Shown here: piece by piece, positions 42,675 through 62,795 of the stretch | Position numbering within the stretch: the stretch's first letter is position 1 | Layout of the letters: every line of letters starts with the position of its first letter | Assembly: GCA_014584695.1 (NCBI GenBank) | Contig: JACTMI010000032.1 | Coordinates: 105,265 to 169,264, forward strand | Direction: 5' to 3' | Source of the DNA: Acidobacteriota bacterium | Lineage (GTDB): Bacteria; Acidobacteriota; Thermoanaerobaculia; Multivoradales; JAGPDF01 | Length of the DNA stretch: 64,000 nt | Translations under genes and position numbers: made by a program | The notes under the pieces: model-generated | What the model was told of the DNA's origin: nothing | What the model saw: only the letters and a program-made list of their open reading frames with translations | Databases searched by the model: none

Positions 42675-42689
42675 TGGCACCGGGGTTGC
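42675..42689 (+). promoter_or_regulatory. Sigma-54 (-24/-12) promoter TGGCAC-cgggg-TTGC
   Basis: Perfect consensus spacing, 83 nt upstream of the precursor A start codon. Confidence 0.65.
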
Positions 42690-42771
42690 CATAGGAAGAG
42701 GCAGAACGGCGAAACCCGCCGGGGCACCTCCGGATGAACCGGCTGGCGCCACACAACGAGGAGCAACGAAA

Positions 42772-43079: not shown

Positions 43080-43181
43080 GCCGGGCGCAGACATCAGGGG
43101 CCGCGGCGGGCGACCGAAAGGTCCCCGCCGCGGCTCTTTCCCTTTCGAGCGGCTGGCAGGTCGGCGCAGGTTGCGCCGGGC

Positions 43182-44309
43182 TCAGCCTTCGCCGGCGAGC
43201 AGGCGCTCCGGATTGAGCCCCTCGAGATCGGGCACCACGAAGCGGCCGTCCTTGCGGATCAGGACGTCATCGAACCAGATCTCGCCGCCGCCGTCGGCCG
43301 CTTCCATCCGCAGCACCAGGTCCCAGTGGACCTGCGAACGGTTGCCGTTGTCCGCGGCGGCGTACGCCTGGCCCGGCGTGAAGTGGATCGAGCCGGCGAT
43401 CTTCTCGTCGAACAGGATGTCCTTCATCGGTGCGGTGATGTGGGGGTTGAAGCCGAGCGCGAACTCGCCGACATGGCGCGCGCCGTCGTCGGTGTCGAGC
43501 AGGCGGTCGAGCGCCTCGCCGGCGCTGCTCGAGGCCTCGACGATGCGGCCGCCGCGAAAGACGAAGCGGACGTTCTCGTGCGTCACCCCGCGGTAGAGCG
43601 ACGGCGTGTTGTAACGGATGGTCCCCTCCACGCTATCGCGCACCGGCGCGGTGTAGACCTCGCCGTCCGGCAGGTTGCGCCGACCGTCGCAGGCCACCGC
43701 GCCGATACCCCTGACGCTGAAGGAGAGGTCGGTGCCCGGAGCGGTGATGCGAACGCGGTCGGCCGCCTCGAGGCGCGCCTTGAGCGGCGCCATGGCGCGC
43801 GACATCCGGGCGTAGTCGAGCGTGCAGACCCGGAAGTAGAGCTCTTCGAAGGCCGCGGTCGAGGTGCCGGCCAGCTGGGCCATCGAGGGACCCGGCCAGC
43901 GGGTCACCACCCAGCGCGTGCGCGGGACGCGAAGGTCCAGGTGGACGCGCTTCCAGAGCAGCGCCTCGAACAGCGCCATCCGCTCGCTCGGCACGTCGGC
44001 GAGCTCCGAGACGTTGTCGCCGCCGCGCAGGCCGATGTAGGCGTCCACCTGGCGCATCACGGCTTCCTCGCCGTCGGCGATCAGCGTCCACTGCTCGGTG
44101 GTCCCGGCCCGCAGCAGCTCGCGGGTCACCGGCGCGCTCTTCAGCAGCACCGCCGGCAGCGCCCCGGCGGCCGCCGCCGCGCGCACCAGGGTGGTCACGA
44201 ACGAGGTCGGCACGTCGATCGCCTCGATCAGCAGCTTGTCGCCCGGAACGAGGGCGCAGGAGTAGCGGACGAGCGTTTCGGCGAGCTTCTGGTGGCGGAG
44301 GTCGGTCAT
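43182..44309 (-). CDS. M29-family aminopeptidase (AmpS/PepS-like)
   Basis: 376 aa from the ATG at 44309; M29-like organisation (HVGEFALG...). It is divergent from and sandwiched between the two precursor genes. Confidence 0.65.
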   Translation of the reverse strand: MTDLRHQKLAETLVRYSCALVPGDKLLIEAIDVPTSFVTTLVRAAAAAGALPAVLLKSAPVTRELLRAGTTEQWTLIADGEEAVMRQVDAYIGLRGGDNVSELADVPSERMALFEALLWKRVHLDLRVPRTRWVVTRWPGPSMAQLAGTSTAAFEELYFRVCTLDYARMSRAMAPLKARLEAADRVRITAPGTDLSFSVRGIGAVACDGRRNLPDGEVYTAPVRDSVEGTIRYNTPSLYRGVTHENVRFVFRGGRIVEASSSAGEALDRLLDTDDGARHVGEFALGFNPHITAPMKDILFDEKIAGSIHFTPGQAYAAADNGNRSQVHWDLVLRMEAADGGGEIWFDDVLIRKDGRFVVPDLEGLNPERLLAGEG

Positions 44310-44522: not shown

Positions 44523-44537
44523 TGGCATCGGGGTTGC
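44523..44537 (+). promoter_or_regulatory. Sigma-54 (-24/-12) promoter TGGCAT-cgggg-TTGC
   Basis: Same architecture and spacing as the 42675 promoter, 82 nt upstream of the precursor B start. Confidence 0.6.
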
Positions 44538-44618
44538 GATAGGGAGAATCGTTCGGCGCACGACGCCGAGCCCGGGCGGGATGAACTCGCCGGGCACGAG
44601 ACCAGAGGAGCAACGCCA

Positions 44619-44928
44619 GTGGAGATGTCACGCGGTGAGATGCAGGACCTGCTGAACAAGTTCGCGTCCCAGAACCCGCAGTATCGCGATGCGCTGATCA
44701 AGGACCCGAAGTCGGTGGTGGAGAAGCAGTTCAACATCAGCCTCTCCGGCGTCACCGTCAAGGCCGTGACCGAGGCCCCCGACACGCTGTACGTGATCGT
44801 TCCGCGTGCTGCGGCGGCCGGTGAGCTCGACGACTCCGACCTCGAGAAGGTCGCGGGCGGCGGCGACATCAACGTCAAGCTGGGCGGCGAGGTCAGCTGC
44901 TCGCAGGGCCCAGATCAACCTCGGCTGA
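44619..44928 (+). CDS. RiPP precursor peptide B (paralog of A, GTG/ATG start); 3' end uncertain (+1 frameshift against the same conserved TGA at 44926-44928)
   Basis: Leader about 85% identical to A and an identical core start DINVKLGGEVSCSQG. Frame 0 would read 345 nt into lanM, which is implausible. Confidence 0.55.
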
Positions 44929-45040
44929 GCCGAGGCGGATCCACGAAGCCCGATTCCGGGGGCCCGTGGACGGGCTGCAAGGCCCGCCACGCGGCCCCCG
45001 GTTGTTTCGTGGGCCCCTGCTCGGAGAACCCAAGCTGGCC

Positions 45041-48000
45041 ATGTCGACGATCGCCACTGCGTGCCTGCGTGCCGAGACGCTGTTCGAGCGGCTCGCGCGG
45101 CTGGCCCGCGCTTTCGACGCTCCTCCGGCCTTGGAGGATGCCGCGGTGGCCGCGGCGCTCGAGCCGTGGCGGCGGGCGGTCGCGCGCGGCGACGGCGAGG
45201 CCTTCGCGCGCCGGCTCGCCTGGGACGGCATCGACCCGCGCGTGGCGGCGCTCGCGTTCGTGGAACCGGTAGGAGCGCCCGACGGCCCATGGTGCGTGAA
45301 CATGGAGCGCTGGCTCCATGCCGTGGCGACAAGGGGTCTCGCGAGCTCCGGCAGCGAGCTCGCCGCCGGGCTGCCGTTCGGAGAGTGGGTCGCCAGCTGG
45401 GTCGCAGAAGCGGCCTCCCGCGCCCGGCAGAAGCTGCCGGCGCTCGACGACCTGCTGACGCCGGCGGCGTGGCTGCAGTGGCAGCGGGCCCTCGGCGGGC
45501 GGCTCGCCTGGATCGCCGCGCTGCCGCTCTACGAGCGCTTCGACCTCGAGCGATCGGCGCGGGGCGAAGCGGGTGCGCTAGCCCGATTTCTCGCGGCGCT
45601 CGGCGCCAGCCCGACGGCGTCCGGCCTCGAGCTGCCGGGACTGGTCCGGCAGCTCGCCGGCCGGGCCGAGGACTGGATCGATGCCGGTGTGGAGTGGATC
45701 GGTCGCTTGGCCGCCGATCGCGCCGGCTTCGCACTCGCCTTCGAGGGGGACGCCGATCCCGGTCGGGTCGTGGCGGTGGAGGCCGGGCTCTCCGATCCTC
45801 ACGCCCGTGGCCGCCGTGTCCTGGCGCTCACCTTCGAGTCGGGGCTCGAGGTGATCTACAAGCCCCGGCCGGTCGACCTGGAGTCGGCCTGGTGGCAGCT
45901 CGCGAGCGAGCTCGCCGAGGCCGGTTTCGAGGCCGCCCCGCTGGCGGCGCGGACGCTCGCCCGGCCGGGCTACGGCTGGATGGAAAGGGTGGCCGCCGGC
46001 GGGGTCGACAGCGCGAGCGAGGCCGAGTCCTGGTTCCGCCGCGCGGGCGCGCTGGTCGCGCTGGCATGGGTGCTCGGCGGCCGCGACCTCCACGCCGAGA
46101 ACCTGATCGCCGACCGGCGCGGACCGGTCCTGGTGGACGCGGAGATGCTGCTCGCTCCGGAGCCGGGCGCGCTGCTGCGCAGCGGCCCCGACTCCGTGCT
46201 GGCGACCGGCCTGGTGGCCGATCCCGCGGCCACGGCGGGGCCCGGAGCCTGGGGCTACGCCGGCCTCGACCTGCCGGAGCCGGGCGAGCTGCCCGAAGCC
46301 GACCGGCACTGGGAGAACCTCGGCACCGACCGGCTTCGGCTGGCCTGGCGACGTTTCCCCAGGGCCCTCAAGACCAACGTTCTGAGGTGGCGCGGGCGGC
46401 CCCAGCGTCCCGAGGCCTGGCGGGAGGCCGTGTTGGAGGGCTTCGACCTCGGCATGGCGGCGATTGGCGAGCAGCGGGAGCGGATCGAGCGCTGGTTGGC
46501 GGCGCGCGGCGACACGCCGACGCGCGTTCTGTTCCGTCCGAGCGCCCAGTACGCGACCACGGTCGCCCTGTCGGTCCGTCCCCGCTACGCCAACGACGGG
46601 CTGGCCGGCAGCCTGCTGCGCGAAGCGCTCCTGCAGCCGCTCGTCGGCCTCGCCGAGCGGCCGGCGCTCTGGCCCCTGATCGCCGACGAGCGGGCCGCGC
46701 TCGAAGCGCTCGACCTGCCGGTCTTCCACCTGCCGGCCGGTGCGACGGCGCTCACCAACTCGGCGGGAGAAAGGATCGAGGGCCTGTTCGAGCAGAGCGG
46801 GATCGCGGCCGCTCGCGCGCGGCTCGCCGAGCTCGACGCGGAGAGAATCGAGCGCGAACGCCGCCACCTCGCGGCCGCGCTCGAGCCGCGCCGGCTCGGG
46901 CGCGCGGAGGAGGAGTCCCGGCTCGCGGCCGCGGCGGCCGAGATCGCCGGCGCGCTGGCGATGTCGAAGGCCTTCGCCGCCGTGCCCGCGCCCGGCGCGT
47001 CGCTGCGCGAGCTCGCCCTCTACGGCGGCGCCGCCGGGCGCGCGCTGTTCGCGGCGGGGGCTTGGCGGGCCACCGGCGGAGCGGCCTGGGCATCGATTGC
47101 CGGAGAGATCGCGTCCGGCCTCGTGCGCGCTCTCGCGGCGGTGCCGGCGGAGGCGGAGGGACAGCCATCACGGCCTGGGGGCACCGACGGCTGGGGCTCG
47201 ATTCTCTGGACCTTGGTCACCCTCGCGGAACTGCTCGAGCAGCCGGAGCTGCTCGCGGGCGCGGCGGCGGCCGGCGAGCGTCTCGAAGCCACGCCACGGC
47301 GGCCGGATCTCTGGGGATTCGACCTCGCCGCGGGCGAGGCGGGGGCGTTGCTCGGCTGGCTGGCCCTGGCGCAGGCGAGCGGGGAGGCCGCGGCGCTCGA
47401 GCGCGCGCGCGACAGTGGGCAGCGGCTGCTGTCGAGCCAGCTCCGGTCGGGTCCGGATGCCGGAGGCTGGCCGGCGCCCGGGGGCTCGCCGCCGCTCGCG
47501 GGCTTCGCGCACGGCGCCTCGGGCATCGCCCGTGCCCTCGATGCGCTGGCGGCCGCGACCGGCGAGGGGGAGTATCGCGACGCGGCCGGCGCGGCGCTGC
47601 GCTTCGAGAGCTCGTTGTTCGATCGCCAGCGCGGGGACTGGCCAGCGCGGATCGCCGGCGGCGGTCGCCGGTTCCTGTGCAGCTGGTGCCACGGAGCGCC
47701 GGGGGTGGCGATCGCCCGCGCGCTCCGGCTGGCGGCAGGGGGCGAGGATCGGGCGGCGGCTACGGAGCTCGCGACGGCGCTCGCCACGCTCGCTGGGGCG
47801 CCGCTGCCCGAAGTCGACCACCTCTGCTGCGGCACGGCGGGACGCCTGGCGGCGCAGACGGTCGCCGGGCGGTGGGGCGGCGGCGAGGAAGCGCTGGCGG
47901 CGGGACGGCGGCTGGCGCGCCGGGCCCTGGCGCGCGCTGAAGGCAGCGGCGGCTGGCGGATTCCGGCCGAGCCGCCGGCGGAGCGTCCGGATCTCGGGCT

Positions 48001-48121
48001 GTTCCGAGGCTACCCGGGCCTCGCCTGGAGCCTGATCTCGCTCACCGACGCGGGCGGACCGCTGCCGCTGGTGGCGGCGCTCGAGCTGCCGGCGGAGCGC
48101 CGCCGGAGGAGCCAGCAATGA
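45041..48121 (+). CDS. lanM: Class II lanthipeptide synthetase LanM (dehydratase plus LanC-like cyclase)
   Basis: Kinase-like dehydratase motifs (DLHAENLIA...VLVDAEM). C-terminal LanC zinc-ligand motifs GFAHGASG, SWCHGAPG and CCGTAG. An alternative GTG start at 44966 is possible. Confidence 0.85.
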   Translation: MSTIATACLRAETLFERLARLARAFDAPPALEDAAVAAALEPWRRAVARGDGEAFARRLAWDGIDPRVAALAFVEPVGAPDGPWCVNMERWLHAVATRGLASSGSELAAGLPFGEWVASWVAEAASRARQKLPALDDLLTPAAWLQWQRALGGRLAWIAALPLYERFDLERSARGEAGALARFLAALGASPTASGLELPGLVRQLAGRAEDWIDAGVEWIGRLAADRAGFALAFEGDADPGRVVAVEAGLSDPHARGRRVLALTFESGLEVIYKPRPVDLESAWWQLASELAEAGFEAAPLAARTLARPGYGWMERVAAGGVDSASEAESWFRRAGALVALAWVLGGRDLHAENLIADRRGPVLVDAEMLLAPEPGALLRSGPDSVLATGLVADPAATAGPGAWGYAGLDLPEPGELPEADRHWENLGTDRLRLAWRRFPRALKTNVLRWRGRPQRPEAWREAVLEGFDLGMAAIGEQRERIERWLAARGDTPTRVLFRPSAQYATTVALSVRPRYANDGLAGSLLREALLQPLVGLAERPALWPLIADERAALEALDLPVFHLPAGATALTNSAGERIEGLFEQSGIAAARARLAELDAERIERERRHLAAALEPRRLGRAEEESRLAAAAAEIAGALAMSKAFAAVPAPGASLRELALYGGAAGRALFAAGAWRATGGAAWASIAGEIASGLVRALAAVPAEAEGQPSRPGGTDGWGSILWTLVTLAELLEQPELLAGAAAAGERLEATPRRPDLWGFDLAAGEAGALLGWLALAQASGEAAALERARDSGQRLLSSQLRSGPDAGGWPAPGGSPPLAGFAHGASGIARALDALAAATGEGEYRDAAGAALRFESSLFDRQRGDWPARIAGGGRRFLCSWCHGAPGVAIARALRLAAGGEDRAAATELATALATLAGAPLPEVDHLCCGTAGRLAAQTVAGRWGGGEEALAAGRRLARRALARAEGSGGWRIPAEPPAERPDLGLFRGYPGLAWSLISLTDAGGPLPLVAALELPAERRRRSQQ

Positions 48122-49092
48122 CGACGCCGCAATTCGAGGTCCGCCGGCTCGCATCGCCGGTCGATCCCGCCTTCAGCGCCATGACCTTTCCGCTCTATCG
48201 CCGCCTGCTTTCGCTCGAGCCGACGGTGCGCCACCCCGAGCAGGGCGACCCGCGGCGGATCCAGCCGGTCGCCATCGGCGCCTTCGAGGCGGAGCGGCCG
48301 GTCGGCCTGATCGTGGCCGAGCAGCCCCTCGGGGACAGCGAGCCGGCGGAGCTGCTCTCCCTGTTCGTGGCCGAGGGCGAGCGCGGCCGGGGGGTCGGAG
48401 GCGCCCTGGTCGCCGCGGCCGAGCAGGCCCTCGCGGCCGCGGGGGTCGCGGAGGTGCGCGCGGTGTGGACGGCCGGCAAGCCGGCGATCGAGGCGCTGGA
48501 GCGGATTCTCGCCCGCCACGGCTGGACGCCGCCGGCGGCCCGCACGGTTTCGGCCCGCTTCCGGCCCGAGAAGATGCTCACCCTGCCGCTGTTCTCTCCT
48601 CGTCACCTGGCGTCCCTGGATCCGGGATTCGAGATCTTCCCCTGGGCGGAGCTGCCGGCCGAGGAGCTCGCCGCCCTGCGCGCCTCGAACGAGGCCCGGC
48701 ACTGGATTTCCGACGGTCTCGAGCCCTGGAGCTACCGCGGCGGCGCCGGCTACGACCCGGCGACCAGCGTCGGCGCGCGCCACCAGGGGCGGCTGGTCGG
48801 CTGGGTGCTGACCGAGCGAATCGACGACCGCCTGCTGCGCTGGACCGTGAGCTTCCTGGACAAGCGTCTGTCCCGGCGCGGCCGCATCGTGCCGCTCTAC
48901 AAGTCGTCGCTCGAGCGGGCGGTGGCGGCGGGCTACGAGCTCTGCCTGTTCGTGACCCCCGTCCGGTTCCCCAACATGGTGCGCTTCATCCACAAGTGGA
49001 TCGCCCGCCGGGCGGAGTTCATCGGCGAGACTCGCTCCGCCGGGCGCCGGCTCACCCCGTCGGGCGCCGGCGCGCCCCGCCTTGAATCCTGA
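48118..49092 (+). CDS. GNAT-family N-acetyltransferase, translationally coupled to lanM (ATGA)
   Basis: GERGRGVGGALV acetyl-CoA-binding motif. The start overlaps the lanM stop. Confidence 0.65.
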   Translation: MTTPQFEVRRLASPVDPAFSAMTFPLYRRLLSLEPTVRHPEQGDPRRIQPVAIGAFEAERPVGLIVAEQPLGDSEPAELLSLFVAEGERGRGVGGALVAAAEQALAAAGVAEVRAVWTAGKPAIEALERILARHGWTPPAARTVSARFRPEKMLTLPLFSPRHLASLDPGFEIFPWAELPAEELAALRASNEARHWISDGLEPWSYRGGAGYDPATSVGARHQGRLVGWVLTERIDDRLLRWTVSFLDKRLSRRGRIVPLYKSSLERAVAAGYELCLFVTPVRFPNMVRFIHKWIARRAEFIGETRSAGRRLTPSGAGAPRLES

Positions 49093-53354: not shown

Positions 53355-54512
53355 ATGTTCGGCGGAGGTCCCGAGAAGCTGCTGCGCAAGGCGGCGATCG
53401 AGAAGATGTCGTCGCCGGAGCAGCTCGACATGGCGATGCGGGTGACCTCGCCGATGGGCTGGGTGGCGCTGTCGGCGATCGGGGTGGCCCTGGTCGCCGG
53501 CATCGTCTGGAGCATCGTCGGCCGCATTCCCGAGCAGGTCGACGCGCAGGGGGAGCTGCTGCGCGGGGATCGTGTCGGCGCGGTGACGGCGATCGCCTCG
53601 GGCCGGCTCAAGGACGTGGTCGTCCGCATGGGAGACAACATCGAGGTCGGCGATCTCGTGGCCCGGCTCGCGCTGCCGGACATCGAGGCGCAGATCGAGA
53701 AGGTGAAGGCGGACATCCAGGACCTGGAGGCCCGGCAGCGGGTGCAAAGCGGCGAGACCAGCGCCGTGGTCGCCGGCTACCGGTCCAAGCTCTCCGGGCT
53801 CTACGCGCAGCGCCGCAACATGCAGCAGCTGGTGGAGAAGGGGCTGCGCACGCAGAAGGACCTGCTGCAGATCGACGCCCAGATCGCCGACACGCAGGCC
53901 CAGATCGCCCAGACCCAGGGCGGCAGCGACCAGCGCGACCTCCAGGTCGACGACAAGCGGCGGGAGCTGATCCGGCTCGAGTCCCAGCTGGCCGCGACCT
54001 CGGAGCTGCGCTCCTCGGTACCCGGCAGGGTGGTCCAGATCCAGGTCGCGGCGGGGCAGCCGGTGCAAGCAGGAGATTCGGTCGTGCTGATCGAGGACGA
54101 GAGCCTGCCGCTGCACGCGCTGATCCTGATCCCGGGCGTGCAGGGCAAGCGGGTCGTTCCCGGCATGGAGGTCAAGGTCTCGCCGACCGACGTCAAGTCG
54201 GAAGACCACGGCTTCATGCTCGGCAAGGTGACTTCGGTCTCGGACAACGCCGTGGCGCCGCAGGAGCTCGACCGGATTCTCAACAACCAGGCGAAGACCC
54301 AGAAGTACATGGAGCAGGCCCCTTTCATCGCCTTCGCGGACCTGATTCCGGATCCGGCCCCCGGCAACGTCTCCGGCTTCAAGTGGACCTCCGCTCTCGG
54401 CCCGCCGAAGCGAATCACCAGCGGCACGCCCTGCGTCTTCCAGGTGATCGTCGACGAGCGCCGGCCGATCTCCTACGTCGTCCCGATGGTCAAGAAGACG
54501 CTGGGAATCTGA
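53355..54512 (+). CDS. HlyD-family periplasmic adaptor (NHLP-bacteriocin secretion type)
   Basis: GGAGGAGG RBS, N-terminal transmembrane anchor, long coiled-coil, C-terminal beta-domain. Confidence 0.8.
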   Translation: MFGGGPEKLLRKAAIEKMSSPEQLDMAMRVTSPMGWVALSAIGVALVAGIVWSIVGRIPEQVDAQGELLRGDRVGAVTAIASGRLKDVVVRMGDNIEVGDLVARLALPDIEAQIEKVKADIQDLEARQRVQSGETSAVVAGYRSKLSGLYAQRRNMQQLVEKGLRTQKDLLQIDAQIADTQAQIAQTQGGSDQRDLQVDDKRRELIRLESQLAATSELRSSVPGRVVQIQVAAGQPVQAGDSVVLIEDESLPLHALILIPGVQGKRVVPGMEVKVSPTDVKSEDHGFMLGKVTSVSDNAVAPQELDRILNNQAKTQKYMEQAPFIAFADLIPDPAPGNVSGFKWTSALGPPKRITSGTPCVFQVIVDERRPISYVVPMVKKTLGI

Positions 54513-54525
54513 GCCCGCGCCGCGC

Positions 54526-56736
54526 GTGAGCAACCCCGCCGCCCCGCCCGCCGCCGAGAGCGAGGCCCAGCCCAAGCCGAGCGGTCCGCCCAGCCGGCGG
54601 GTCAAGGTCCCGACCGTCATCCAGATGGAGGGCGTCGAGTGCGGCGCCGCTTCGCTGGCGATGATCCTCGCCTACTTCGGCCGCATCGCGCCGCTGGAGG
54701 AGCTGCGGGTCGAGTGCGGCGTTTCGCGCGACGGCTCCAAGGCTTCCAACCTCCTGAAGGCGGCGCGCAAGTACGGCCTGGAGTCGAAGGGCTTTAAGTA
54801 CGAGATCGAGCAGCTCTTCCCGCTCAAGTTCCCCTGCATCCTGTTCTGGAACGCCAACCACTTCCTGGTGCTCGAGGGCTTCCGGGGTGGCAAGGTCTAT
54901 CTGAACGACCCGGCGCAGGGGCCGCGCGTCATCACCATGGAGGAGTTCGACGCCGGCTTTTCGGGCGTCGTGCTGACTTTCGAGAAGGGGGCGGACTTCC
55001 AGCCCGGCGGCGACAAGCCGAGCATGTACCACGCGCTCCGGCGGCGCCTGGTCGGTTCCGAGGTGGCGCTGCTGTTCGTCCTGCTCTGCGGCCTGTTCCT
55101 GGTCGTGCCCGGACTGGTCATCCCGACGTTCTCGCGCATCTTCGTCGACGAGTATCTCGGCGCCGGCCGTGATTCGATCATCCGCCCGCTGCTGCTGGGC
55201 ATGGGGATCACCGCGCTCCTGAACATGGCGCTGACCGGGCTGCAGCAGCACTCCCTGCTGCGGCTGGAGACCCGTCTGGCGCTCAAGACCTCGGCGCAGT
55301 TCTTCACCCACGTGCTGCGCCTGCCGATCAACTACTTCGCGCAGCGCTTCGCCGGCGAGATCGGCTCGCGCGTGGCGATCAACGACAAGGTGGCGACGAT
55401 GGTCGGCGGCAAGCTCGCCACCACCGTCATCGACTGCATCCTGGTCGTCTTCTACGGCGCGTTGATGTTCCTGTACGACGGCATCCTGACCTCGGTCGTG
55501 ATCGCCCTGGCGTTGGCCAACATCGTGGCGATGAAGCTGGTCCAACGGGTCCGCACCGACGCTTCCCGGAGGCTGCAGGCGGACAAGGGCAAGCTGGTCG
55601 GCACCGCGATGTACGGCTTGAGGATGATCGAGACGCTCAAGGCGACCGGCTCCGAGCCCGAGTTCTTCGCCCGCTGGTCCGGCTACCAGGCCAAGTCGCT
55701 GCGCGCGCAGCAGGAGCTGCAACTCCTCTCCGAGATGATCAATGTGGTGCCGCAGCTGGTGACGACGCTGATCTCGGCGGTGGTCCTGCTGCTGGGCGGC
55801 CTGCGGGTGATGGACGGCGCGCTCACGGTCGGCATGCTGGTGGCCTACCAGACCCTGTCGGGGAACTTCACCAAGCCGCTCTCGAACCTGGTCAACTTCG
55901 GCGGTTCCTTGCAGGAGCTCGAAGCGGACATGAACCGCCTCGACGACGTGCTTCGCTACCCGCAGGACAAGACCTACGAGCGGGAGGACGTCGGCCGCGA
56001 GGACCGCCGGCTCAAGCTGCAGGGCAAGGTCGAGCTGCGCAACGTGACCTTCGGCTACAGCCCGCTCGAGAAGCCGCTGATCGAGGACTTCAACCTGGTC
56101 ATCCAGCCCGGCCAGCGGGTGGCGCTGGTCGGCGCCTCGGGCAGCGGCAAGTCGACGGTGGCCAAGGTCGTCTCCGGCCTCTACGAACCCTGGCGTGGCG
56201 AGGTGCTGTTCGACGACGTGGCCAGGACTCAGCTGCCGCGCCGCCTGCTCACCAACTCCCTGGGCATGGTCGACCAGGACATCTTCATGTTCGACGGCAC
56301 CATCCAGGAGAACGTGACGATGTGGGACGGCACCATCCCGCTCACCGCGGTGTCGACGGCGGCGCGCGACGCCGCCATCGACGAGGTGATCGAGACCCGC
56401 GAGGGGGCGTATGGCGCCAACGTGACCGAAGGCGGCTCGAACTTCAGCGGCGGGCAGCGCCAGCGGCTCGAGATCGCCCGCGCGCTGGTCGGCGGGCCGA
56501 CGGTGCTGATCCTCGACGAGGCGACGAGCGCGCTCGATCCGGCGACCGAGGTGGTGATCGACGACTCGACGCGGCGACGCGGCTGCACCACGATCATCAT
56601 CGCGCACCGCCTGTCGACGATCCGCGACTCCGACGAGATCATCGTCCTCGAGCGCGGCAAGATCGTCCAGCGCGGCACCCACGAAGAGATGAAGGACCAG
56701 GATGGCCCCTATGCCCGGCTCATCGGCGCCCACTAG
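54526..56736 (+). CDS. ABC exporter with N-terminal C39 bacteriocin-processing peptidase domain
   Basis: C39 catalytic Cys in VPTVIQMEGVECGAASLAMILAYFG, 6-TM domain, Walker A GASGSGKST, signature FSGGQRQRL. Confidence 0.85.
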   Translation: MSNPAAPPAAESEAQPKPSGPPSRRVKVPTVIQMEGVECGAASLAMILAYFGRIAPLEELRVECGVSRDGSKASNLLKAARKYGLESKGFKYEIEQLFPLKFPCILFWNANHFLVLEGFRGGKVYLNDPAQGPRVITMEEFDAGFSGVVLTFEKGADFQPGGDKPSMYHALRRRLVGSEVALLFVLLCGLFLVVPGLVIPTFSRIFVDEYLGAGRDSIIRPLLLGMGITALLNMALTGLQQHSLLRLETRLALKTSAQFFTHVLRLPINYFAQRFAGEIGSRVAINDKVATMVGGKLATTVIDCILVVFYGALMFLYDGILTSVVIALALANIVAMKLVQRVRTDASRRLQADKGKLVGTAMYGLRMIETLKATGSEPEFFARWSGYQAKSLRAQQELQLLSEMINVVPQLVTTLISAVVLLLGGLRVMDGALTVGMLVAYQTLSGNFTKPLSNLVNFGGSLQELEADMNRLDDVLRYPQDKTYEREDVGREDRRLKLQGKVELRNVTFGYSPLEKPLIEDFNLVIQPGQRVALVGASGSGKSTVAKVVSGLYEPWRGEVLFDDVARTQLPRRLLTNSLGMVDQDIFMFDGTIQENVTMWDGTIPLTAVSTAARDAAIDEVIETREGAYGANVTEGGSNFSGGQRQRLEIARALVGGPTVLILDEATSALDPATEVVIDDSTRRRGCTTIIIAHRLSTIRDSDEIIVLERGKIVQRGTHEEMKDQDGPYARLIGAH

Positions 56737-59700
56737 CGCGCGCGGCGCGCTCAAGCTGCGCGTCGTCGCGTCGTCGCTCGCCGAGCTGATCGGTCGCGAG
56801 ATCGCCGTCGACCGCGCACCGATGGTGCTGGGCCGGGCCGACGACTGCGACGTGGTGATCGCGGTGCCGAGCGTCTCCCGGCGGCACGCGCAGATCGAGC
56901 GCGTGGGCGAGGATTTCGTCGTCCGCGATGCCGGCAGCGCCAACGGCCTGGTGGTGGCCGGGCAGCGGGTGATGGAGGCGCGCCTGGAGCCGGGCGTCTC
57001 CTTCGCGCTCGGGGACACACACTTCGAGGTCTTCGCCGAGATGCCGCCGGTGCCGCAAGTGCCGGACGTGCCGGCGGCGGCGCTGCCTTTCGCCGTCGAC
57101 CGCACCGCGGCGATCGCTAATCTGTCGGAGATCATCGCCCAGATCGAGCGGCCGCAGCCGCTCGAGGAGCTGGGCGAGCGCATCGTCACCGCCGCCAACA
57201 AGCCGTTCGTGCTCGACGACCCGGAGGTCGCCTGGATCGTCGAGTCGGGCAAGCTCGAGATCTTCACCGTCTCGATCGAGAAGGGCCAGCCGGTCGGTGC
57301 CCGCGACCATTTCCTGACCGTCGAGCCCGGCCAGGCGCTGTTCGGTTTCGACACCGAGCGCTACGGCATGGGGTCGGGCTTCCTGGTGGTCGGCAAGGCC
57401 GGCTCGGTGCTCCGGCGCTTCGATCTGGCACGACTGCTCGACCTGGCCTCGGTGCCCGCGCACGGGCAGCGGATCGGCAAGCTCCTCGACACCTGGATCG
57501 AGGGGCTGTCGCGACGGCTGACGCACGATCTCCCGCGGGTGCCGACGGCCGACCTGATTCTGGAGCGGGGCGCGTCGATGCCCTGGCAGGCCGGACAGAA
57601 GGCCTCGCCGGGGCACGTGGTGCTGTGGGTCGAGCTGCCGGCGGAGCGGTTGCTGTTCGACGGCATGGCGAGCCTCGGTCGCGACCTCGAGGGAGTGCTC
57701 TTTCCGCTCGGACCGACCTGTTGGCTGGAGCTGTTGTCGAGCGAGCACGAGCTCGCGGTGACGCCGCGCGGCGCCGGTGAGTCGGCCGCGGATCCGCGGT
57801 TGTGGGCGGGTCTCGACGTCTTCCACCGCGTGCTCTGCGAGTGCGAGTTCGTCAACAAGAAGCTCGCCTTCGTCGACGAGTTCCAGCGCCTGCAGCGCAA
57901 GGCCGAGCAGGTCGAGCAGGCGCAGGAGAGCGCCTACGCGGCGATCGGCTCGGTGCTCGGCGGTACCGGAGTCTGGATGCGGCCGAGCTCGCTCGGCGTC
58001 GACTCCGGCCCCATCCTCAAGGCCTGCGCGGTGGTCGGCGATGCGCTCGGCATCCAGGTCCGCCCCCATCCCGACGCGCGCGACGAACAGAGCTTCGAGG
58101 ACGCCCTCGGCGGCATCGCCGCCGCGTCACGGTTCAGGACGCGGCGGGTGACGCTGCTCGACGACTGGTGGAATCACGACCAGGGCCCCTTCCTCGGCCA
58201 GCGGGCGGAGACGAAGACTCCGGTGGCGATCGTCCCGACCAGTCCCCGCTCCTACATGCTGGTCGATCCGATCTCGGGCGAACGGGTGCCGATCGACGAG
58301 GAGGTCGCGCGCGGCCTCGAGCCGTTCGCGTGGACGTTCTACCGCTCGTTCCCGCCGGGCGCCCTCAAGGCGCTGGACCTGGTCAAGTTCGGCGCCCGCG
58401 GCCTCAAGGCGGAGTTCCGGACCATCGCGATCATGGGCGCGGCCGTGGGCATGCTGGGCACGCTGACGCCGATGATCTCGGGCAAGGTCTTCGACATCGC
58501 GATCCCGCAGGCGGAGCGGGGGCTGCTCTGGCAGTTCACTCTCGGCCTGGCGCTTTCGGCCTTCTGCTCGGCGGCGTTCAAGATCACGCAGAACATCTCG
58601 TTGATGCGCGTCCAGGGCAAGATGGACTACTCGATCCAGTCGGCGGTCTGGGACCGGCTGATCGACCTGCCGATGGATTTCTTCCGCAAGTACAACTCGG
58701 GCGACCTCGCCGACCGCGCCGCCGGCGTCGACCAGATCCGGTCGATCGTCTCCGGCGCGGGCGTGGCCGCGGTCCTGGGATCGCTGTCGTCGCTGTTCAA
58801 CGCCGCCCAGATGGTGACCTACAGCTTCCAGCTGGCGCTGACGGCGATGGCGCTGACGCTCGTCTACGTCGGGGTCTCCTGGCTGGTCAACTACCTGCAG
58901 TTACGCCACCAGCGCAAGGAGTTCGCGCTGCGCGGCAAGATCAGCGGGCTCGTCCTGCAGCTGATCGGCGGCGTGGCGAAGCTGCGCGTGGCCGGCGCCG
59001 AGGGACACGCCTTCAAGATGTGGGCGACGCGCTTCGCCGAGCAGCGGCGGATCAGCTTCAAGATCGGCGGCATCCAGAACGTCCATCAGATCTTCACCTC
59101 CGGCTACCCGGTGTTGTCGAACATGGCGATCTTCTTCGTCATGTTCACCCTGCGCCAGGGCGCGCTGGAGCGCGGCGAGCAGTTCGACATGACCACCGGC
59201 GACTTCCTGGCCTTCTCGGCGGCGTTCGGCATCTTCACCTCGGCGATGCAAGGGCTGGGCGACGCCTCGCTGTCGATGCTGCGGATCGTGCCGGTGTTCG
59301 AGCGCTTGAAGCCGATTTTGACCACCGAGCCCGAGGTGGACCCCTCGAAGTCCTACCCCGGCCAGCTCAAGGGCGAGATCGAGCTGTCGCACATCTGGTT
59401 CCGCTACTCGGAGGACTCGCCCTGGATCGTCCGCGACCTGTCGCTCAAGATCAAGCCCGGCCAGATGGTGGCCTTCGTCGGCGGTTCGGGCTGCGGCAAG
59501 TCGACGCTGCTCAAGATCATGCTGGGCTTCGAGAAGCCGCAGAAGGGCTCGGCCTACTTCGATGGGCAGGACCTCGCGACGCTCGACTTGCGCATGGTCC
59601 GGCAGCAGCTGGGCGTCGTGCTGCAGGATTCCCGGCTGCTGCCGGCGGACATCTTCCGCAACATCGCCGGCGCCACCTCGCGGACCGTCGACGATGCCTG

Positions 59701-60088
59701 GGCGGCGGCGCAGAAGGCCTCGATCGCGGAGGACATCAAGGCGATGCCGATGGGCATGCACACCGTCGTGTCCGAAGGCGGCGGAGCGTTCTCGGGTGGC
59801 CAGAAGCAGCGTCTGATGATCGCCCGCGCGCTGGTCAACAACCCGAAGATCATCTTCCTCGACGAAGCCACCAGCGCGCTCGACAACCGGGCGCAGGCGA
59901 TCGTGACCGAGAGCATGAATCGGCTGCAGGCGACGCGCATCGTCATCGCTCACCGGCTGTCGACGATCGAGGACGCGGACGTCATCTGCTACCTCGATGC
60001 CGGGCAGATCGTCGAGCAGGGCACCTACGCCGAGTTGATGGCCCTGGACGGCAAGTTCGCGGCCCTGGCGAAACGGCAGCTGGCATGA
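56702..60088 (+). CDS. ABC exporter with N-terminal FHA and cNMP-binding-like domains instead of a peptidase
   Basis: FHA (VLGRADDCDVVIAVPSVSRRHAQIERVGEDFVVRDAGSANGLVV). Beta-barrel-like FVLDDPEVAWIVESGKLEIF...VEPGQALFG. TMD, Walker A GGSGCGKST, signature FSGGQKQRL. Confidence 0.8.
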   Translation: MAPMPGSSAPTSARGALKLRVVASSLAELIGREIAVDRAPMVLGRADDCDVVIAVPSVSRRHAQIERVGEDFVVRDAGSANGLVVAGQRVMEARLEPGVSFALGDTHFEVFAEMPPVPQVPDVPAAALPFAVDRTAAIANLSEIIAQIERPQPLEELGERIVTAANKPFVLDDPEVAWIVESGKLEIFTVSIEKGQPVGARDHFLTVEPGQALFGFDTERYGMGSGFLVVGKAGSVLRRFDLARLLDLASVPAHGQRIGKLLDTWIEGLSRRLTHDLPRVPTADLILERGASMPWQAGQKASPGHVVLWVELPAERLLFDGMASLGRDLEGVLFPLGPTCWLELLSSEHELAVTPRGAGESAADPRLWAGLDVFHRVLCECEFVNKKLAFVDEFQRLQRKAEQVEQAQESAYAAIGSVLGGTGVWMRPSSLGVDSGPILKACAVVGDALGIQVRPHPDARDEQSFEDALGGIAAASRFRTRRVTLLDDWWNHDQGPFLGQRAETKTPVAIVPTSPRSYMLVDPISGERVPIDEEVARGLEPFAWTFYRSFPPGALKALDLVKFGARGLKAEFRTIAIMGAAVGMLGTLTPMISGKVFDIAIPQAERGLLWQFTLGLALSAFCSAAFKITQNISLMRVQGKMDYSIQSAVWDRLIDLPMDFFRKYNSGDLADRAAGVDQIRSIVSGAGVAAVLGSLSSLFNAAQMVTYSFQLALTAMALTLVYVGVSWLVNYLQLRHQRKEFALRGKISGLVLQLIGGVAKLRVAGAEGHAFKMWATRFAEQRRISFKIGGIQNVHQIFTSGYPVLSNMAIFFVMFTLRQGALERGEQFDMTTGDFLAFSAAFGIFTSAMQGLGDASLSMLRIVPVFERLKPILTTEPEVDPSKSYPGQLKGEIELSHIWFRYSEDSPWIVRDLSLKIKPGQMVAFVGGSGCGKSTLLKIMLGFEKPQKGSAYFDGQDLATLDLRMVRQQLGVVLQDSRLLPADIFRNIAGATSRTVDDAWAAAQKASIAEDIKAMPMGMHTVVSEGGGAFSGGQKQRLMIARALVNNPKIIFLDEATSALDNRAQAIVTESMNRLQATRIVIAHRLSTIEDADVICYLDAGQIVEQGTYAELMALDGKFAALAKRQLA

Positions 60089-61272
60089 GTGGGGAGCCTT
60101 CCTCTTCGGTCGATGGGCTCGCCGCCCGGCGCGAGCTTCTGCGCGGCCTGGGCGCCAGCGAGGAGCTGCTCGCCGAGCTGCTCGCCTACACCGAGAACCC
60201 CTACCGCCACCTGGAGCTGCCGGCCGGCACGCCGCCGCTGCCGGCCGAACCCCAGGTCGCGGCCTGGCGGCACGCGGCGGCGGAGGCGGCCGAGTTCGGG
60301 GCGGCGGCGGCGCTGGCGCGGCGCTTCCCGCAGCTCGGCTTCCCGATTCGGGAGGGAATGTCGGAGGATGCGGCCTATCGGGCCGCCACGCGGCGCGGCG
60401 AGTTCGAGCGCCAGCCGGCGCGGCTCCGGCTCGAGCTCGAGCGGCCCGAGCGGCTGGAGCTGTCGATTGCCGAGCTGCCCGCGGGGCCGGTGCCGATCCT
60501 GGTGGCGCCGGCGCGGGCCGATTTCGAGGCGCTGGTGCGCGCTCTGACCTCGCGCAACGAGCCGGTCGAGGTGCCGGCCGCGATGGGCGCCTGCCTGATC
60601 AAGGGCTTGGCGGACTGGGAACGGGTGGCCGAGCACCGGCGCCGGTTCGAGGAGCGGCTCGGCCGCCCCGCCGACGAGCTCGAATGGCAGGCCGAGATGG
60701 CCTCGCTCGCCCAGATCAAGGAGGCGTGGCAGGACCGTCTGATCCTGCTGTCGACCGGCCCTTACAGCGCGGTTCCGGCCGAGGAGGTCGGTCTCGAGCC
60801 GGCCGACTGGAGCGACGCGTCGGTGCGGATCCGCATGGCGCACGAGGGTTTCCACTACCTCACGCTGCGGCTCTGCGGGCGCATCCGGAGCAATCTCCTG
60901 GACGAGCTGATCGCCGATTTCGCCGGCATGTTGGCCGCGTTCGGCGACTACCGGCCGGCGCTCGCACGCCGGTTCCTCGGCGTCGATCGCCTGCCGGCGC
61001 TGCGCGGCGGGGGCCGGATCGAGGTCTATCGCGGGGATCCTGCGCTCTCGGACGCGGCCCTCGCGGTGGTGGCCCGTCTGGCCGCGGCGGCGACCGAGAA
61101 CCTGGCGGCGATCGAGGTCAGCCCGGCCGAGCGCAAGTCGCCGGCGGCGTTGGCCACGCTGCTGTTGGCCCTCGCCAAGCTCGATCTCGAGTGCTTCGCG
61201 AGCCGGGAGTTCCCGCGCCAGTTCGAAGCGGCGCGGGCGGCGGGAACTGGTGGCCAGGAGGCGCGACGATGA
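60085..61272 (+). CDS. Conserved hypothetical protein (395 aa), ATGA-coupled on both sides
   Basis: The ORF is embedded in the operon with start and stop overlaps. No family motif recognised apart from HEGFHY. Confidence 0.5.
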   Translation: MSGEPSSSVDGLAARRELLRGLGASEELLAELLAYTENPYRHLELPAGTPPLPAEPQVAAWRHAAAEAAEFGAAAALARRFPQLGFPIREGMSEDAAYRAATRRGEFERQPARLRLELERPERLELSIAELPAGPVPILVAPARADFEALVRALTSRNEPVEVPAAMGACLIKGLADWERVAEHRRRFEERLGRPADELEWQAEMASLAQIKEAWQDRLILLSTGPYSAVPAEEVGLEPADWSDASVRIRMAHEGFHYLTLRLCGRIRSNLLDELIADFAGMLAAFGDYRPALARRFLGVDRLPALRGGGRIEVYRGDPALSDAALAVVARLAAAATENLAAIEVSPAERKSPAALATLLLALAKLDLECFASREFPRQFEAARAAGTGGQEARR

Positions 61273-61697
61273 CCGAGCTGTTTCGGGGATCCCTCGATCG
61301 TCCCACCCTCGCCGGGCTCGGCCGTTTGCTGGACCGGCTGGCGGAGGCGATGGCGCGGGCCGGTGTCACCACCCGCAGCGCGCAGTCGATCTCGATCGCG
61401 GCCGACGAGCTGGCGAGCAACGTGCTGAATCACCGCGAAGGGCGTGACAAGCCTCACCTCGACCTGGTGCTGCGGCGCCGGGAGGACGGCGCGATCGAGC
61501 TCGAGCTGATCGACGACGGGCCGGAGTTCGATCCGTTCGCGGTCGCCGCGCCGGACGTCACTCTCGGCCTCGAGGAGCGCCCGATCGGCGGGCTCGGCAT
61601 CCACCTCGCCCGCCGCCTCGCTTCCGGCGCGAGCTACCGGCGCGGCGACGACCGCAACCGCGTCGAGCTCCGCTTCGACCCGCCGGCCGCCGGCTGA
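61269..61697 (+). CDS. RsbW/SpoIIAB-like anti-sigma serine kinase (HATPase_c)
   Basis: N-box ADELASNVLNH, G1 DDGPEFD, G2 GGLGIHL, 142 aa. Confidence 0.65.
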   Translation: MTELFRGSLDRPTLAGLGRLLDRLAEAMARAGVTTRSAQSISIAADELASNVLNHREGRDKPHLDLVLRRREDGAIELELIDDGPEFDPFAVAAPDVTLGLEERPIGGLGIHLARRLASGASYRRGDDRNRVELRFDPPAAG

Positions 61698-62795
61698 TCA
61701 GCCGGCGCGAAAGACGAAGCGAACGGTGCCGATCTGGACCCGGTCGCCGTCGCCGAGCTGCCGCTCCTTCACCTTCTCGCCGTTGACGTAGGTGCCGTTC
61801 TCCGAGTTCAGGTCGCGCAGCACGTAGCCACTTTCGGACTGCGCGATCTGGGCGTGGCGACGAGACACCGCCGGCTTGTTGAGCCGGATCTGGTTCTCGG
61901 GCGTGCGTCCGATGAAGGTGAGCGGCTCGAGCGCGAACTCGGTCGCTCCCAGGTCGGTGTCGATCGCGATCAGCTTGCCCTTGACCAGGACGACGGTCTT
62001 GCCGGCGGCCGGGGACGCGCTCGGCGCGGCGGGCGGGGGGACGTCGATCAGGGCCGTCGCTCCGGCCGCGGCGGCCGGCGGCGGCGGTGGCGCCTCGGCC
62101 GCCAGGATCACCGTGCCGTCCGGCTCGCCGGTGGCGTTGGCCGGGGTGGCCGCCGGTGCGGGCGGCGCGACGGCGACCTCGGCGGTGATGCCCAGCGGCT
62201 GGATGACCGGCTGCGGCGCGGTGATGCCGGCATCGACCAGAGGCGGTGGCGGCGGGGTGGCGACCGCGGGCGCGGTGACCGAAGGGGCCGCGACCTCCGG
62301 GACGATCGGAACCGGTGCCGGCGGTAGAGCCGGCGCGGGCGTGGCGAGCTCGGCCTCGGAGTCGAACGCACCGAGGAACTGCTCACGCACCGCCTGCGTC
62401 TCCTCGAGCTGCCGGGTCTGCTCGTCGAGCTTGTCGTCGAGCTCGGAGGCCCGCTTCTTGAACTCACCGTCCTCGAACTCACCGAGGCGATGGCGGAAGT
62501 CGATCTCCTCGCGGTCGAGCTTGGTCGCCTGGTGCTGCGCCTCGATCTTGTCGAGCAGGACCTTGAGCTTGGCGTACTCCTGCCGCGCCTTGTCCTTGAG
62601 CGGGGAGGCCTTGCGCTCTAGGGCGGAGACCCTCGACTCGTAGTCGCGCTTGACCCGGCGGAAGACGACGTCGGTGACCTTGCTCTGGTCTTCGGCCATC
62701 TTGGCCAGCCGGGTCGCGATCGTCTCCCGTTCTCCCTTGATCTCCATCAGCTCGTCGATGACCGAGGTATCGACCTGCTGTAGCTGCTCGAGCAT
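61698..62795 (-). CDS. FHA-domain protein with N-terminal coiled-coil and Pro/Ala-rich linker
   Basis: C-terminal FHA (SRRHAQIAQSESGYVLRDLNSENGTYVNG). Confidence 0.7.
   Translation of the reverse strand: MLEQLQQVDTSVIDELMEIKGERETIATRLAKMAEDQSKVTDVVFRRVKRDYESRVSALERKASPLKDKARQEYAKLKVLLDKIEAQHQATKLDREEIDFRHRLGEFEDGEFKKRASELDDKLDEQTRQLEETQAVREQFLGAFDSEAELATPAPALPPAPVPIVPEVAAPSVTAPAVATPPPPPLVDAGITAPQPVIQPLGITAEVAVAPPAPAATPANATGEPDGTVILAAEAPPPPPAAAAGATALIDVPPPAAPSASPAAGKTVVLVKGKLIAIDTDLGATEFALEPLTFIGRTPENQIRLNKPAVSRRHAQIAQSESGYVLRDLNSENGTYVNGEKVKERQLGDGDRVQIGTVRFVFRAG

Follow-up and report, generated by a model that had tools for sequence, protein, structure and literature searches.

Directly downstream of the genes of an NHLP-type peptide exporter, the stretch of 64,000 nucleotides analysed here (the window) carries one gene for a 395-aa protein and one for an RsbW-like kinase, which raises the question of what such a pair does at a peptide export locus. 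RiPPs with NHLP/Nif11 leaders, including prochlorosins, proteusins, selidamides and many cryptic lanthipeptides, have been heavily mined, and to our knowledge the three-gene exporter alone is accepted as their common machinery.

Exporter genes and coding evidence

The export system was identified by three TIGR models that scored above their cut-offs, together with two ORFs bearing NHLP leaders (starts at 42772 and 44619). All three transport genes (TIGR03794/03796/03797) lie directly upstream of the pair, as follows:

53355-54512, plus strand, NHLP-system HlyD-type adaptor (TIGR03794, 248.6 bits against a cut-off of 156)
54526-56736, plus strand, exporter subunit ABC1 with a C39 peptidase domain (TIGR03796, 1090 bits against a cut-off of 853; Peptidase_C39, E 4e-35)
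56702-60088, plus strand, exporter subunit ABC2 with an N-terminal FHA domain at residues 42-104 (TIGR03797, 893 bits against a cut-off of 709)
60085-61272, plus strand, putative DUF7005 metalloenzyme of 395 aa (PF22541 match)
61269-61697, plus strand, RsbW-like serine kinase (HATPase_c_2) of 142 aa (PF13581, E 1.3e-17)
61698-62795, minus strand, convergent 365-aa protein with a C-terminal FHA domain (E 2.8e-20)
44619-44867, plus strand, NHLP-type leader of the precursor peptide, second copy (MEMSRGEMQDLL...LEKVAGGG)

The second leader copy (the first being that at 42772) also matched NHase_alpha weakly (E 0.0088). The cluster encodes a sigma-54 activator, and sigma-54-type promoters precede the precursors.

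Both ORFs of the pair proved real, with a third-position GC in the proposed frames (0.91 for the 395-aa ORF and 0.90 for the 142-aa ORF) like that of ABC2 (0.94). An ATGA at 60085-60088 joins the stop of ABC2 to the start of the 395-aa ORF, and a second at 61269-61272 joins the stop of the latter to the start of the kinase, which bears out the original prediction of a single translational unit with the exporter genes. That prediction had counted three such overlaps, of which these two were found; the ABC1/ABC2 junction is instead an overlap of 26-35 nt, with a TAG stop of ABC1 at 56734-56736 and an ATG start of ABC2 at 56702 or 56711. The stop of the convergent 365-aa FHA gene abuts that of the kinase (TGATCA).

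The DUF7005 protein and its genomic company

The 395-aa protein was assigned by Pfam to DUF7005 (PF22541; 361 bits against a cut-off of 27, E 8e-108), with residues 18-374 of 395 aligned to profile positions 2-360 of 361. Homologs numbered 586 in a first search and 1109 clusters at 50% identity in a second, and conservation was assessed over a set of 98 sequences with 44-65% identity to the window protein. The protein had been described as devoid of recognisable motifs, which is incorrect, as the family match is full-length and two motifs are invariant in the set:

60841-60855, plus strand, HExxH codons (H253-E254-G-F-H257), invariant in the 98 sequences
60904-60918, plus strand, ExxxD codons (E274-L-I-A-D278), putative third metal ligand helix, invariant

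In the AF2 model (pLDDT 95.3, pTM 0.93), the invariant H253, E254 and H257 sit in helix 239-264 and D273, E274, A277 and D278, likewise invariant across the 98 sequences, in helix 271-286, so that the two motifs occupy consecutive helices after a four-strand sheet. The same alignment contains numerous invariant Arg and Tyr residues. No obvious membrane segment was detected: the top 19-residue Kyte-Doolittle mean was 1.64, and this peak falls in a C-terminal helix, inside a globular structure that was modelled with confidence.

In the search for remote homology and structural likeness, the Pfam match spans the whole protein; Foldseek of the AF2 model against the PDB yielded no resembling structure (best E 1.5). 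The whole-family profile run against PDB sequences returned one spurious match only, and a 65-column active-site sub-profile returned only a non-significant match to a snake-venom metalloproteinase. Pfam (E ≤ 5, 98 members) and NCBIfam (E ≤ 10, 24 members) revealed no second family in the DUF7005 region; beyond DUF7005 itself, kinase domains alone were matched consistently by Pfam across the 98 members. DUF7005 is without an NCBIfam model and is annotated as hypothetical protein, and our literature search found neither a mention of it nor a link between NHLP systems and an HExxH exporter accessory.

At the motif level only, DUF7005 shares with the gluzincins (thermolysin type, clan MA) the HExxH helix and, on the next helix, the putative third-ligand Glu within ExxxD, which lies 17 residues on, compared with 20 in thermolysin. 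The local sequences are alike (AHELTH...INEAISDIFG in thermolysin, AHEGFH...LDELIADFAG in DUF7005), the thermolysin motif having been verified for this comparison of layouts. Unlike the gluzincins, DUF7005 has large, unrelated flanking domains and is cytoplasmic, and neither a zincin fold nor a relation to a peptidase family emerged from sequence searches or Foldseek. Since no relation to any peptidase was found in the PDB, Pfam, NCBIfam or Foldseek, the protease assignment is a motif-level one; metal binding and hydrolytic chemistry are predicted from the sequence. The gluzincin-type HExxH...ExxxD signature makes the 395-aa protein more likely an enzyme than the passive scaffold or immunity protein that had been suggested.

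DUF7005 was found in at least 523 species, which belong to the Acidobacteriota, Cyanobacteria, Actinomycetota, Chloroflexota, Planctomycetota, Verrucomicrobiota, Firmicutes, KSB1 and Kiritimatiellae. NHLP exporter genes lie within 10 kb of it in 59 of 80 sampled loci, a co-occurrence that agrees with the earlier view of an uncharacterised component tied to NHLP loci. It is tightly linked to ABC2 in 26/35 acidobacterial loci; in Cyanobacteria, the exporter lies within 10 kb in 24/34 loci, and the cyanobacterial accessory protein of the export system, with its two cNMP domains, directly follows DUF7005 on its 3' side in 25/34. According to tblastn, NHLP leaders adjoin it in five loci (L014, L016, L019, L035 and L038). 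Where no exporter is near, the company is still of this type: LanM and an NHLP precursor precede DUF7005 in L019, and two Nif11 precursors, JmjC enzymes and a halogenase-like enzyme do so in L084. The N. punctiforme locus contains lanthipeptide precursors and a radical SAM enzyme. DUF7005 thus tracks the NHLP/Nif11 precursor and the leader-recognising exporter, whatever the tailoring enzymes. As these neighbours include no particular core-modifying enzyme, the likeliest substrate would be the leader or the leader-core junction, and precursors with NHLP leaders are the proposed substrate class. Phylogenetic profiling by Haft et al. (2010) found only three transport genes (PMC2887384); DUF7005 would be a fourth, unrecognised and widely conserved companion of the NHLP/Nif11 exporter.

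The kinase and the partner-switch components

The kinase matched PF13581 with 64.5 bits (cut-off 27.4) and has the N box (E47..N51), the G1 box (D82-D83-G84-x-x-F87) and the G2 box (G107-G108-x-G110), as had been read from its 142 residues. A single HATPase_c_2 domain of about 140 aa likewise fits the small RsbW/SpoIIAB-like partner-switching type to which it had been allotted. Its sole NCBIfam match was to the RsbA family (26.7 bits against a cut-off of 210), with none to the RsbW and SpoIIAB models, so by NCBIfam it is not an ortholog of either.

An HATPase_c_2 kinase directly follows DUF7005 in 23/35 acidobacterial loci. Among these 23 loci, each of a different species, the two genes are fused in nine, overlap by 4 nt ((A/G)TGA) in eleven and by 1 nt in one, which argues that their coupling is not due to chance. 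Fusions account for 23 of the 98 family members, with DUF7005 N-terminal to the kinase domain and the catalytic boxes of the latter kept, and such frequent fusion suggests kinase-DUF7005 binding or a regulatory partnership. The AF2 model of a natural fusion, P0039 (pTM 0.73), has a disordered linker and does not dock the two parts with confidence. The 395-aa protein had also been put forward as a kinase target, a suggestion that finds no support, as no Ser/Thr is conserved solely in those DUF7005 proteins that are linked to a kinase, and the comparison of the two groups brought out a single differing position, 294. The kinase is absent from the cyanobacterial members, which points to a lineage-specific partner-switch layer.

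The other components of a partner switch lie some 22 kb upstream:

36720-38393, plus strand, FHA-GAF-SpoIIE (PP2C) phosphatase (SpoIIE, E 7e-48; FHA, E 5e-19; GAF_2, E 4e-16)
38410-38922, minus strand, STAS (anti-sigma antagonist-like) protein, candidate kinase substrate (PF01740, E 9e-18)
38931-39749, minus strand, cNMP-binding and FHA protein (cNMP_binding, E 5.5e-21; FHA, E 2.7e-10)

The STAS gene was found where it had been placed, on the minus strand, adjoining the phosphatase gene and in one operon with the cNMP/FHA gene. Its product keeps a phosphorylatable Ser (T56-S57-A-G-L), and the motif (S/T)SAG(L/I) recurs in 11 of 13 STAS homologs from related loci; those without a phosphorylatable Ser come from loci without an adjacent kinase. 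PP2C and STAS genes adjoin or stand near the DUF7005/kinase genes in eight relatives (L011, L017, L021, L029, L031, L054, L072 and L082), and the cNMP/FHA gene is syntenic in six of them (L021, L029, L031, L054, L072 and L082). PP2C homologs lie near or next to DUF7005, with or without a kinase, in 12 acidobacterial loci. This recurrence of PP2C, STAS and cNMP/FHA genes beside the DUF7005-kinase pair in many relatives supports the distant STAS protein, which, with S57 kept, is a credible cognate partner. All partner-switch parts are present in the cluster, including a STAS protein with Ser as the putative phosphate acceptor and a PP2C phosphatase. Neither finding that would have counted against the earlier view was made: candidate partners of the kinase are encoded in the cluster itself, and the searches yielded no well-characterised homolog of the 395-aa protein unrelated to RiPP systems.

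The set shares with RsbU-RsbV-RsbW and SpoIIE-SpoIIAA-SpoIIAB a small HATPase_c_2 kinase, a STAS protein with Ser and a PP2C phosphatase that carries sensor domains; here it forms one cluster, contiguous in relatives. Unlike the RsbW/SpoIIAB systems, it comprises four FHA-domain proteins (ABC2 included) and a cNMP-binding protein, its kinase has an HExxH protein as coupled or fused partner, and it lacks a sigma factor: no sigma-70-family gene was found in the cluster (36 to 63 kb of the window) or in the inspected syntenic loci. Partner switching with non-sigma outputs is exemplified by SiaABCD (PMC8457831) and by the HenR/STAS module through which Anabaena controls a glycosyltransferase (PMC13555669).

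Proposed role and alternative explanations

On the best reading of its sequence, the 395-aa protein is a predicted cytoplasmic metal-dependent enzyme acting on the leader or the precursor. That DUF7005 is such an HExxH enzyme for NHLP/Nif11 RiPP leaders, placed under a partner switch in Acidobacteria, strikes us as about evenly balanced between right and wrong. DUF7005 would act at the cytoplasmic face of the ABC1/ABC2 exporter, where it would cleave or clear either the leader of about 80 aa or precursor that has not been exported. The kinase, made together with it through ATGA coupling or as part of it in fusions, would bind it as RsbW binds sigma-B and would phosphorylate STAS on S57. Upon a signal, the FHA-GAF-PP2C phosphatase would dephosphorylate STAS-P, and the unphosphorylated STAS would capture the kinase, whereby the activity of DUF7005 would change. 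We infer that the leader is the substrate, that kinase and DUF7005 bind physically, and in which direction the regulation runs. The fuller version is possible but rather doubtful: a partner-switching circuit that sequesters an HExxH metalloenzyme of new fold, in place of a sigma factor, as its output, with this enzyme processing or clearing NHLP/Nif11 leaders at the exporter. Given the C39 leader peptidase of ABC1, it is not obvious why another protease directed at the leader should be needed.

If the circuit were confirmed, it would constitute a signal-gated post-translational checkpoint on RiPP maturation and export, conserved in Cyanobacteria and other phyla in a simpler form without the kinase; DUF7005 with its kinase looks like a regulated step in peptide making or export. 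A companion with a putative catalytic-type metal site, spread over hundreds of species and not found in the literature, is a concrete candidate for one of the steps that lack an explanation, e.g. disposal of the leader, quality control or a second cleavage, and could matter for heterologous production. With the fusion to an RsbW-like kinase, the few non-sigma outputs of partner switches would come to include a protease-like enzyme, and peptide export would be linked to FHA, GAF and cNMP sensing.

Other explanations start from the same observations. HExxH enzymes of RiPP pathways can be Fe/alpha-KG oxidases (PMC12636437), so DUF7005 might be a non-heme Fe(II)/alpha-ketoglutarate oxidase that hydroxylates or oxidatively cleaves the precursor. 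It resembles ChlH, BpmH and PflC/PosC (IPR026337) in being an HExxH protein in RiPP clusters; the characterised ones are oxidases with a zincin-like fold, and PflC and PosC, whose substrate precursor bears an NHLP-like leader, can cut the backbone, by oxidation as well as by hydrolysis (PMC12636437). The invariant Arg and Tyr residues could bind a co-substrate. We nevertheless regard an oxidase as unlikely. No membership in IPR026337, a family for which the library accession is unconfirmed, was found with NCBIfam for the window protein or for 24 relatives (at E ≤ 10 for these 24), nor with PDB sequences or Foldseek, and the consistent Pfam matches were confined to DUF7005 and kinase domains. 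The ExxxD after HExxH is a gluzincin signature. Unlike the alpha-KG enzymes, DUF7005 follows the leader and the exporter, not one core chemistry; this independence (LanM, radical SAM, JmjC/halogenase) fits a core-tailoring oxidase poorly. About as improbable is a sensor function, in which DUF7005 would be the input of the kinase, binding leader, precursor or product, and STAS would then control, e.g., the exporter or the sigma-54 activator. Its N-terminal position in fusions is usual for sensors, the cluster has a sigma-54 activator and promoters of that type, and no confident rigid docking was predicted for the fusion. A pure sensor, however, would not need invariant HExxH and ExxxD, and the kinase-free members from Cyanobacteria, Actinomycetota and Chloroflexota keep this catalytic-type motif.

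Less probable still is a non-catalytic accessory, i.e. an exporter scaffold or chaperone or an immunity protein with HExxH as a structural metal site. The tight linkage to ABC2 and the lack of detectable kinship to any enzyme family would suit it, but the general-base E254, both His residues and E274/D278 are invariant across phyla, DUF7005 also occurs in clusters without a nearby exporter, and a cytoplasmic location would be odd for immunity to an exported peptide. Finally, the kinase could be a classical anti-sigma factor whose sigma factor is encoded at another site, with DUF7005 a mere neighbour. Fused kinase domains match RsbW/SpoIIAB models weakly (E 7e-8 to 3e-4), and a 42%-identical homolog belongs to a generic kinase-STAS-PP2C module without DUF7005. 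Given the repeated fusion and the conserved 4-nt overlap, the lack of a sigma factor gene in the cluster and the inspected syntenic loci, and the NCBIfam results for the window kinase, we consider this highly improbable.

Two further candidates were rejected: LonA (33207-35942, beside the PP2C gene) as a member of the system, since none of the related loci encodes a homolog, and CoiH (a new lanthipeptide oxygenase family), which is without a metal motif. A LonC-like protease is encoded directly 3' of DUF7005 in four loci (L012, L014, L020 and L082), and homologs of the convergent 365-aa FHA protein are present in 20 of the 35 acidobacterial loci.

DUF7005 family, conserved motifs and predicted structure

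The 395-aa protein, which the original prediction had described as lacking recognisable motifs, is in fact a full-length member of the Pfam family DUF7005 (PF22541; E 8e-108). A first search returned 586 homologs, and an exhaustive profile search of 1.84 billion proteins yielded 1109 clusters at 50% identity; DUF7005 is a compact and sharply bounded family. We found no paper mentioning it, no NCBIfam model covers the 395-aa protein, and a cyanobacterial member is annotated by NCBI as a hypothetical protein.

Alignments of 24 and 98 members revealed invariant residues H253, E254, H257, D273, E274, A277 and D278, along with an RNEP motif (157-160) and several arginines, tryptophans and tyrosines. 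The AlphaFold2 model was very confident (pLDDT 95.3, pTM 0.93) and showed four beta strands, followed by a long helix (239-264) with HExxH and a second helix (271-286) with ExxxD, which at the motif level is the gluzincin arrangement. The segment AHEGFH-x16-DELIADFAG parallels AHELTH-x19-NEAISDIFG of thermolysin, whose sequence was checked against the PDB. No membrane segment is obvious in the protein. Foldseek with the model against PDB and BFVD gave nothing below E 1, profile searches of the PDB gave no significant match, and no second Pfam or NCBIfam family was assigned, lax thresholds included. The motif alone links DUF7005 to any known enzyme family, and DUF7005 is an orphan, new-fold HExxH/ExxxD family.

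Exporter genes and the adjoining kinase

The DUF7005 gene follows those of an NHLP exporter, whose HlyD adaptor, ABC1 and ABC2 each scored above the NCBIfam equivalog cut-off. The G+C content of the window is ~71%.

Features of the cluster (window positions, strand, description)
39746-41005, sigma-54 activator gene
41033-42532, +, HAD-hydrolase-like protein, its gene lying between those of the sigma-54 activator and first precursor
42772-43596, +, NHLP precursor ORF, first copy
44619-45272, +, NHLP precursor ORF, second copy
44825-49092, +, LanM (DUF4135 and LANC_like), then GNAT; NHLP precursors upstream
from 49.1 kb, +, two OEP/TolC-like outer-membrane genes, ahead of the exporter genes
53355-54512, +, NHLP-system HlyD adaptor
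54526-56736, +, ABC1, C39-peptidase ABC subunit
56702-60088, +, ABC2, peptidase-less ABC subunit with an extra N-terminal FHA domain
60085-61272, +, DUF7005 protein, 395 aa
61269-61697, +, RsbW-like kinase, 142 aa
61698-62795, -, convergent FHA-domain gene, its stop abutting the kinase stop

The stop of ABC2 overlaps the ATG of the DUF7005 ORF in an ATGA at 60085-60088, and the DUF7005 stop overlaps the kinase ATG in another at 61269-61272. There is no third such overlap as originally claimed: ABC1 has TAG as its stop, and the start of ABC2 lies 26-35 nt before it. Third-position GC is 0.91 in the 395-aa frame and 0.90 in the 142-aa frame, and ABC2 is alike. The stops of the kinase and the convergent FHA gene together form TGATCA (61695-61700), with zero intergenic space and no terminator-like hairpin found between the genes; a close convergent layout also occurs in several relatives, e.g. 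locus L001. Between its FHA and membrane domains, ABC2 contains ~430 aa (residues 126-560; 57077-58381) without a Pfam match, which are kept at 27-77% identity in acidobacterial and cyanobacterial ABC2 proteins.

The protein of 142 aa is an HATPase_c_2 domain (E 1.3e-17), and its N, G1 and G2 boxes are all intact. The closest homologs, ~140 aa long, stand alone and are labelled RsbW or anti-sigma regulatory factor in their sources, and a 42%-identical one was found within a generic PP2C/kinase-STAS module.

Neighbourhoods of DUF7005 in relatives

When one genome per species was scanned, DUF7005 turned up in at least 523 species. The neighbourhoods of the best 80 loci of these (35 from Acidobacteriota, 34 from Cyanobacteria and the rest from seven other lineages) were examined by tblastn with the window's proteins. 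NHLP exporter genes lay within 10 kb of DUF7005 in 59 of these 80 loci. Among the acidobacterial loci, ABC2 was directly upstream on the same strand in 26 of 35, and the kinase directly downstream in 23 of 35, including nine fusions, 11 pairs with a 4-nt (A/G)TGA overlap and one with a 1-nt overlap. The kinase domain was fused C-terminally in 23 of 98 DUF7005 proteins, its catalytic boxes being invariant across the fusions. Because fusions and overlaps recur, DUF7005 and the kinase behave as one evolutionary unit. The AlphaFold2 model of one fusion (pTM 0.73) showed no confident inter-domain packing, and no Ser/Thr site was found that marks out the kinase-linked members.

In Cyanobacteria, the exporter (HlyD-ABC1-ABC2) was within 10 kb in 24 of 34 loci, a two-cNMP-domain protein directly downstream in 25 of 34, and a MinD/ParA-like gene directly upstream in 23 of 34; the identical layout is present at the pNPUN02 locus of N. 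punctiforme. Counted over the 25 cyanobacterial loci carrying it (L048, 8826-9611; L081, 11090-11878, N. punctiforme NPUN_RS35450; and 23 other loci), the MinD/ParA-family ATPase gene directly precedes DUF7005 in all but one. The genes for the ATPase, DUF7005 and the two-cNMP-domain protein form a conserved cyanobacterial set of three, and the window has no homolog of the ATPase.

In loci without a nearby exporter, DUF7005 accompanies precursors: in L019 (Actinomycetota), LanM and an NHLP precursor are directly followed by DUF7005, in L084 (Chloroflexota), it comes after two Nif11 precursors, two JmjC enzymes and a halogenase-like enzyme, and L082 (below) is a further case. Tailoring enzymes vary among loci (LanM, radical SAM, JmjC/halogenase, NRPS-like); what stays constant is the NHLP/Nif11 leader together with its exporter. 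Phylogenetic profiling by Haft et al. yielded only the three transport genes (PMC2887384). As a companion of NHLP/Nif11 RiPP systems, DUF7005 is widespread and unrecognised.

In an acidobacterial subset (L012, L014, L020, L082/L083), a LonC-like protease gene directly follows DUF7005, replacing the kinase. The two genes are coupled in L082 by a 4-nt overlap; a precursor of the NHase_alpha type and a sigma-54 activator are close by, and the kinase gene is a few kb off, grouped with FHA, cNMP, PP2C and STAS genes.

Partner-switch components, proposed role and precursors

The STAS candidate foreseen originally proved real (PF01740, E 9e-18; encoded on the minus strand) and keeps its phosphorylatable serine (T56-S57-A-G-L). 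Its gene forms an operon with that of a cNMP-binding/FHA protein, converging on an FHA-GAF-SpoIIE phosphatase gene. PP2C and STAS genes, usually accompanied by a cNMP/FHA gene, adjoin DUF7005 and the kinase or are close to them in eight relatives (L011, L017, L021, L029, L031, L054, L072 and L082); the 22-kb gap in the window therefore reflects local rearrangement around the biosynthetic genes. Both STAS homologs without a phosphorylatable serine (L039, L049) come from loci without an adjacent kinase. In this lineage, DUF7005 is joined to a partner-switching kinase by fusion or coupling, with STAS and PP2C partners in the same cluster, which contains no sigma factor gene.

From motifs and gene neighbourhood, we propose that DUF7005 would be a cytoplasmic metal-dependent enzyme acting at the exporter on the leader or leader-core junction of NHLP/Nif11 precursors; ABC1 already carries a C39 domain, and DUF7005 would be a second leader-directed enzyme. 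In Acidobacteria, it would be the output of a partner switch, held or modulated by the RsbW-like kinase; the phosphorylation state of STAS would be set by PP2C, which has FHA and GAF inputs, and STAS, when unphosphorylated, would compete for that kinase. Such a switch would resemble partner-switching modules already known to have enzyme outputs, for example a glycosyltransferase (PMC13555669) and a diguanylate cyclase (PMC8457831). DUF7005 could instead be the input of the kinase. Its chemistry could also be that of an Fe/alpha-KG oxidase, since RiPP-associated HExxH proteins proved to be such oxidases, two of them acting on an NHLP-like-leader precursor (PMC12636437); DUF7005 has no detectable relation to these proteins.

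Four FHA domains, which are phospho-Thr readers, occur in the cluster: on PP2C (36720-38393), the cNMP protein (38931-39749), ABC2 and the convergent protein. That on ABC2 was seen only in Acidobacteria-type loci and one unclassified MAG, and partner-switch genes are present in most of these too. The window encodes no Hanks-type Ser/Thr kinase; speculatively, LanM phospho-intermediates are one candidate source of phospho-Thr ligands.

Sigma-54-type -24/-12 elements, TGGCACCGGGGTTGCC and TGGCATCGGGGTTGCG (42675-42690 and 44523-44538, +), each lie ~80 nt upstream of a precursor copy; across the whole window, such matches do not exceed chance in number, and it is the placement that stands out. 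Homologous sigma-54 activators adjoin precursors or DUF7005 in L014, L035 and L082. In the HAD-hydrolase-like protein, the C-terminal 300 aa (41633-42529, +) have no Pfam match, and no homolog of the protein was found in the relatives' loci examined. The two precursor ORFs are identical up to ...VAGGGDINVKLGGEVSCSQG and divergent beyond, staying open for ~190 (first copy) and ~130 (second copy) more codons, which overlap the M29 peptidase gene on the minus strand and the LanM 5' region. These extensions may be unusually long cores, or the core may be short and followed by high-GC read-through, a frameshift or stop having been missed. The LanM/GNAT/NHLP set resembles the selidamide/nostolysamide lipidated lanthipeptide clusters (NpuA/NpuM/NpuN, PMC13060382), and GNAT homologs occur in L011, L035, L037, L047 and L053.
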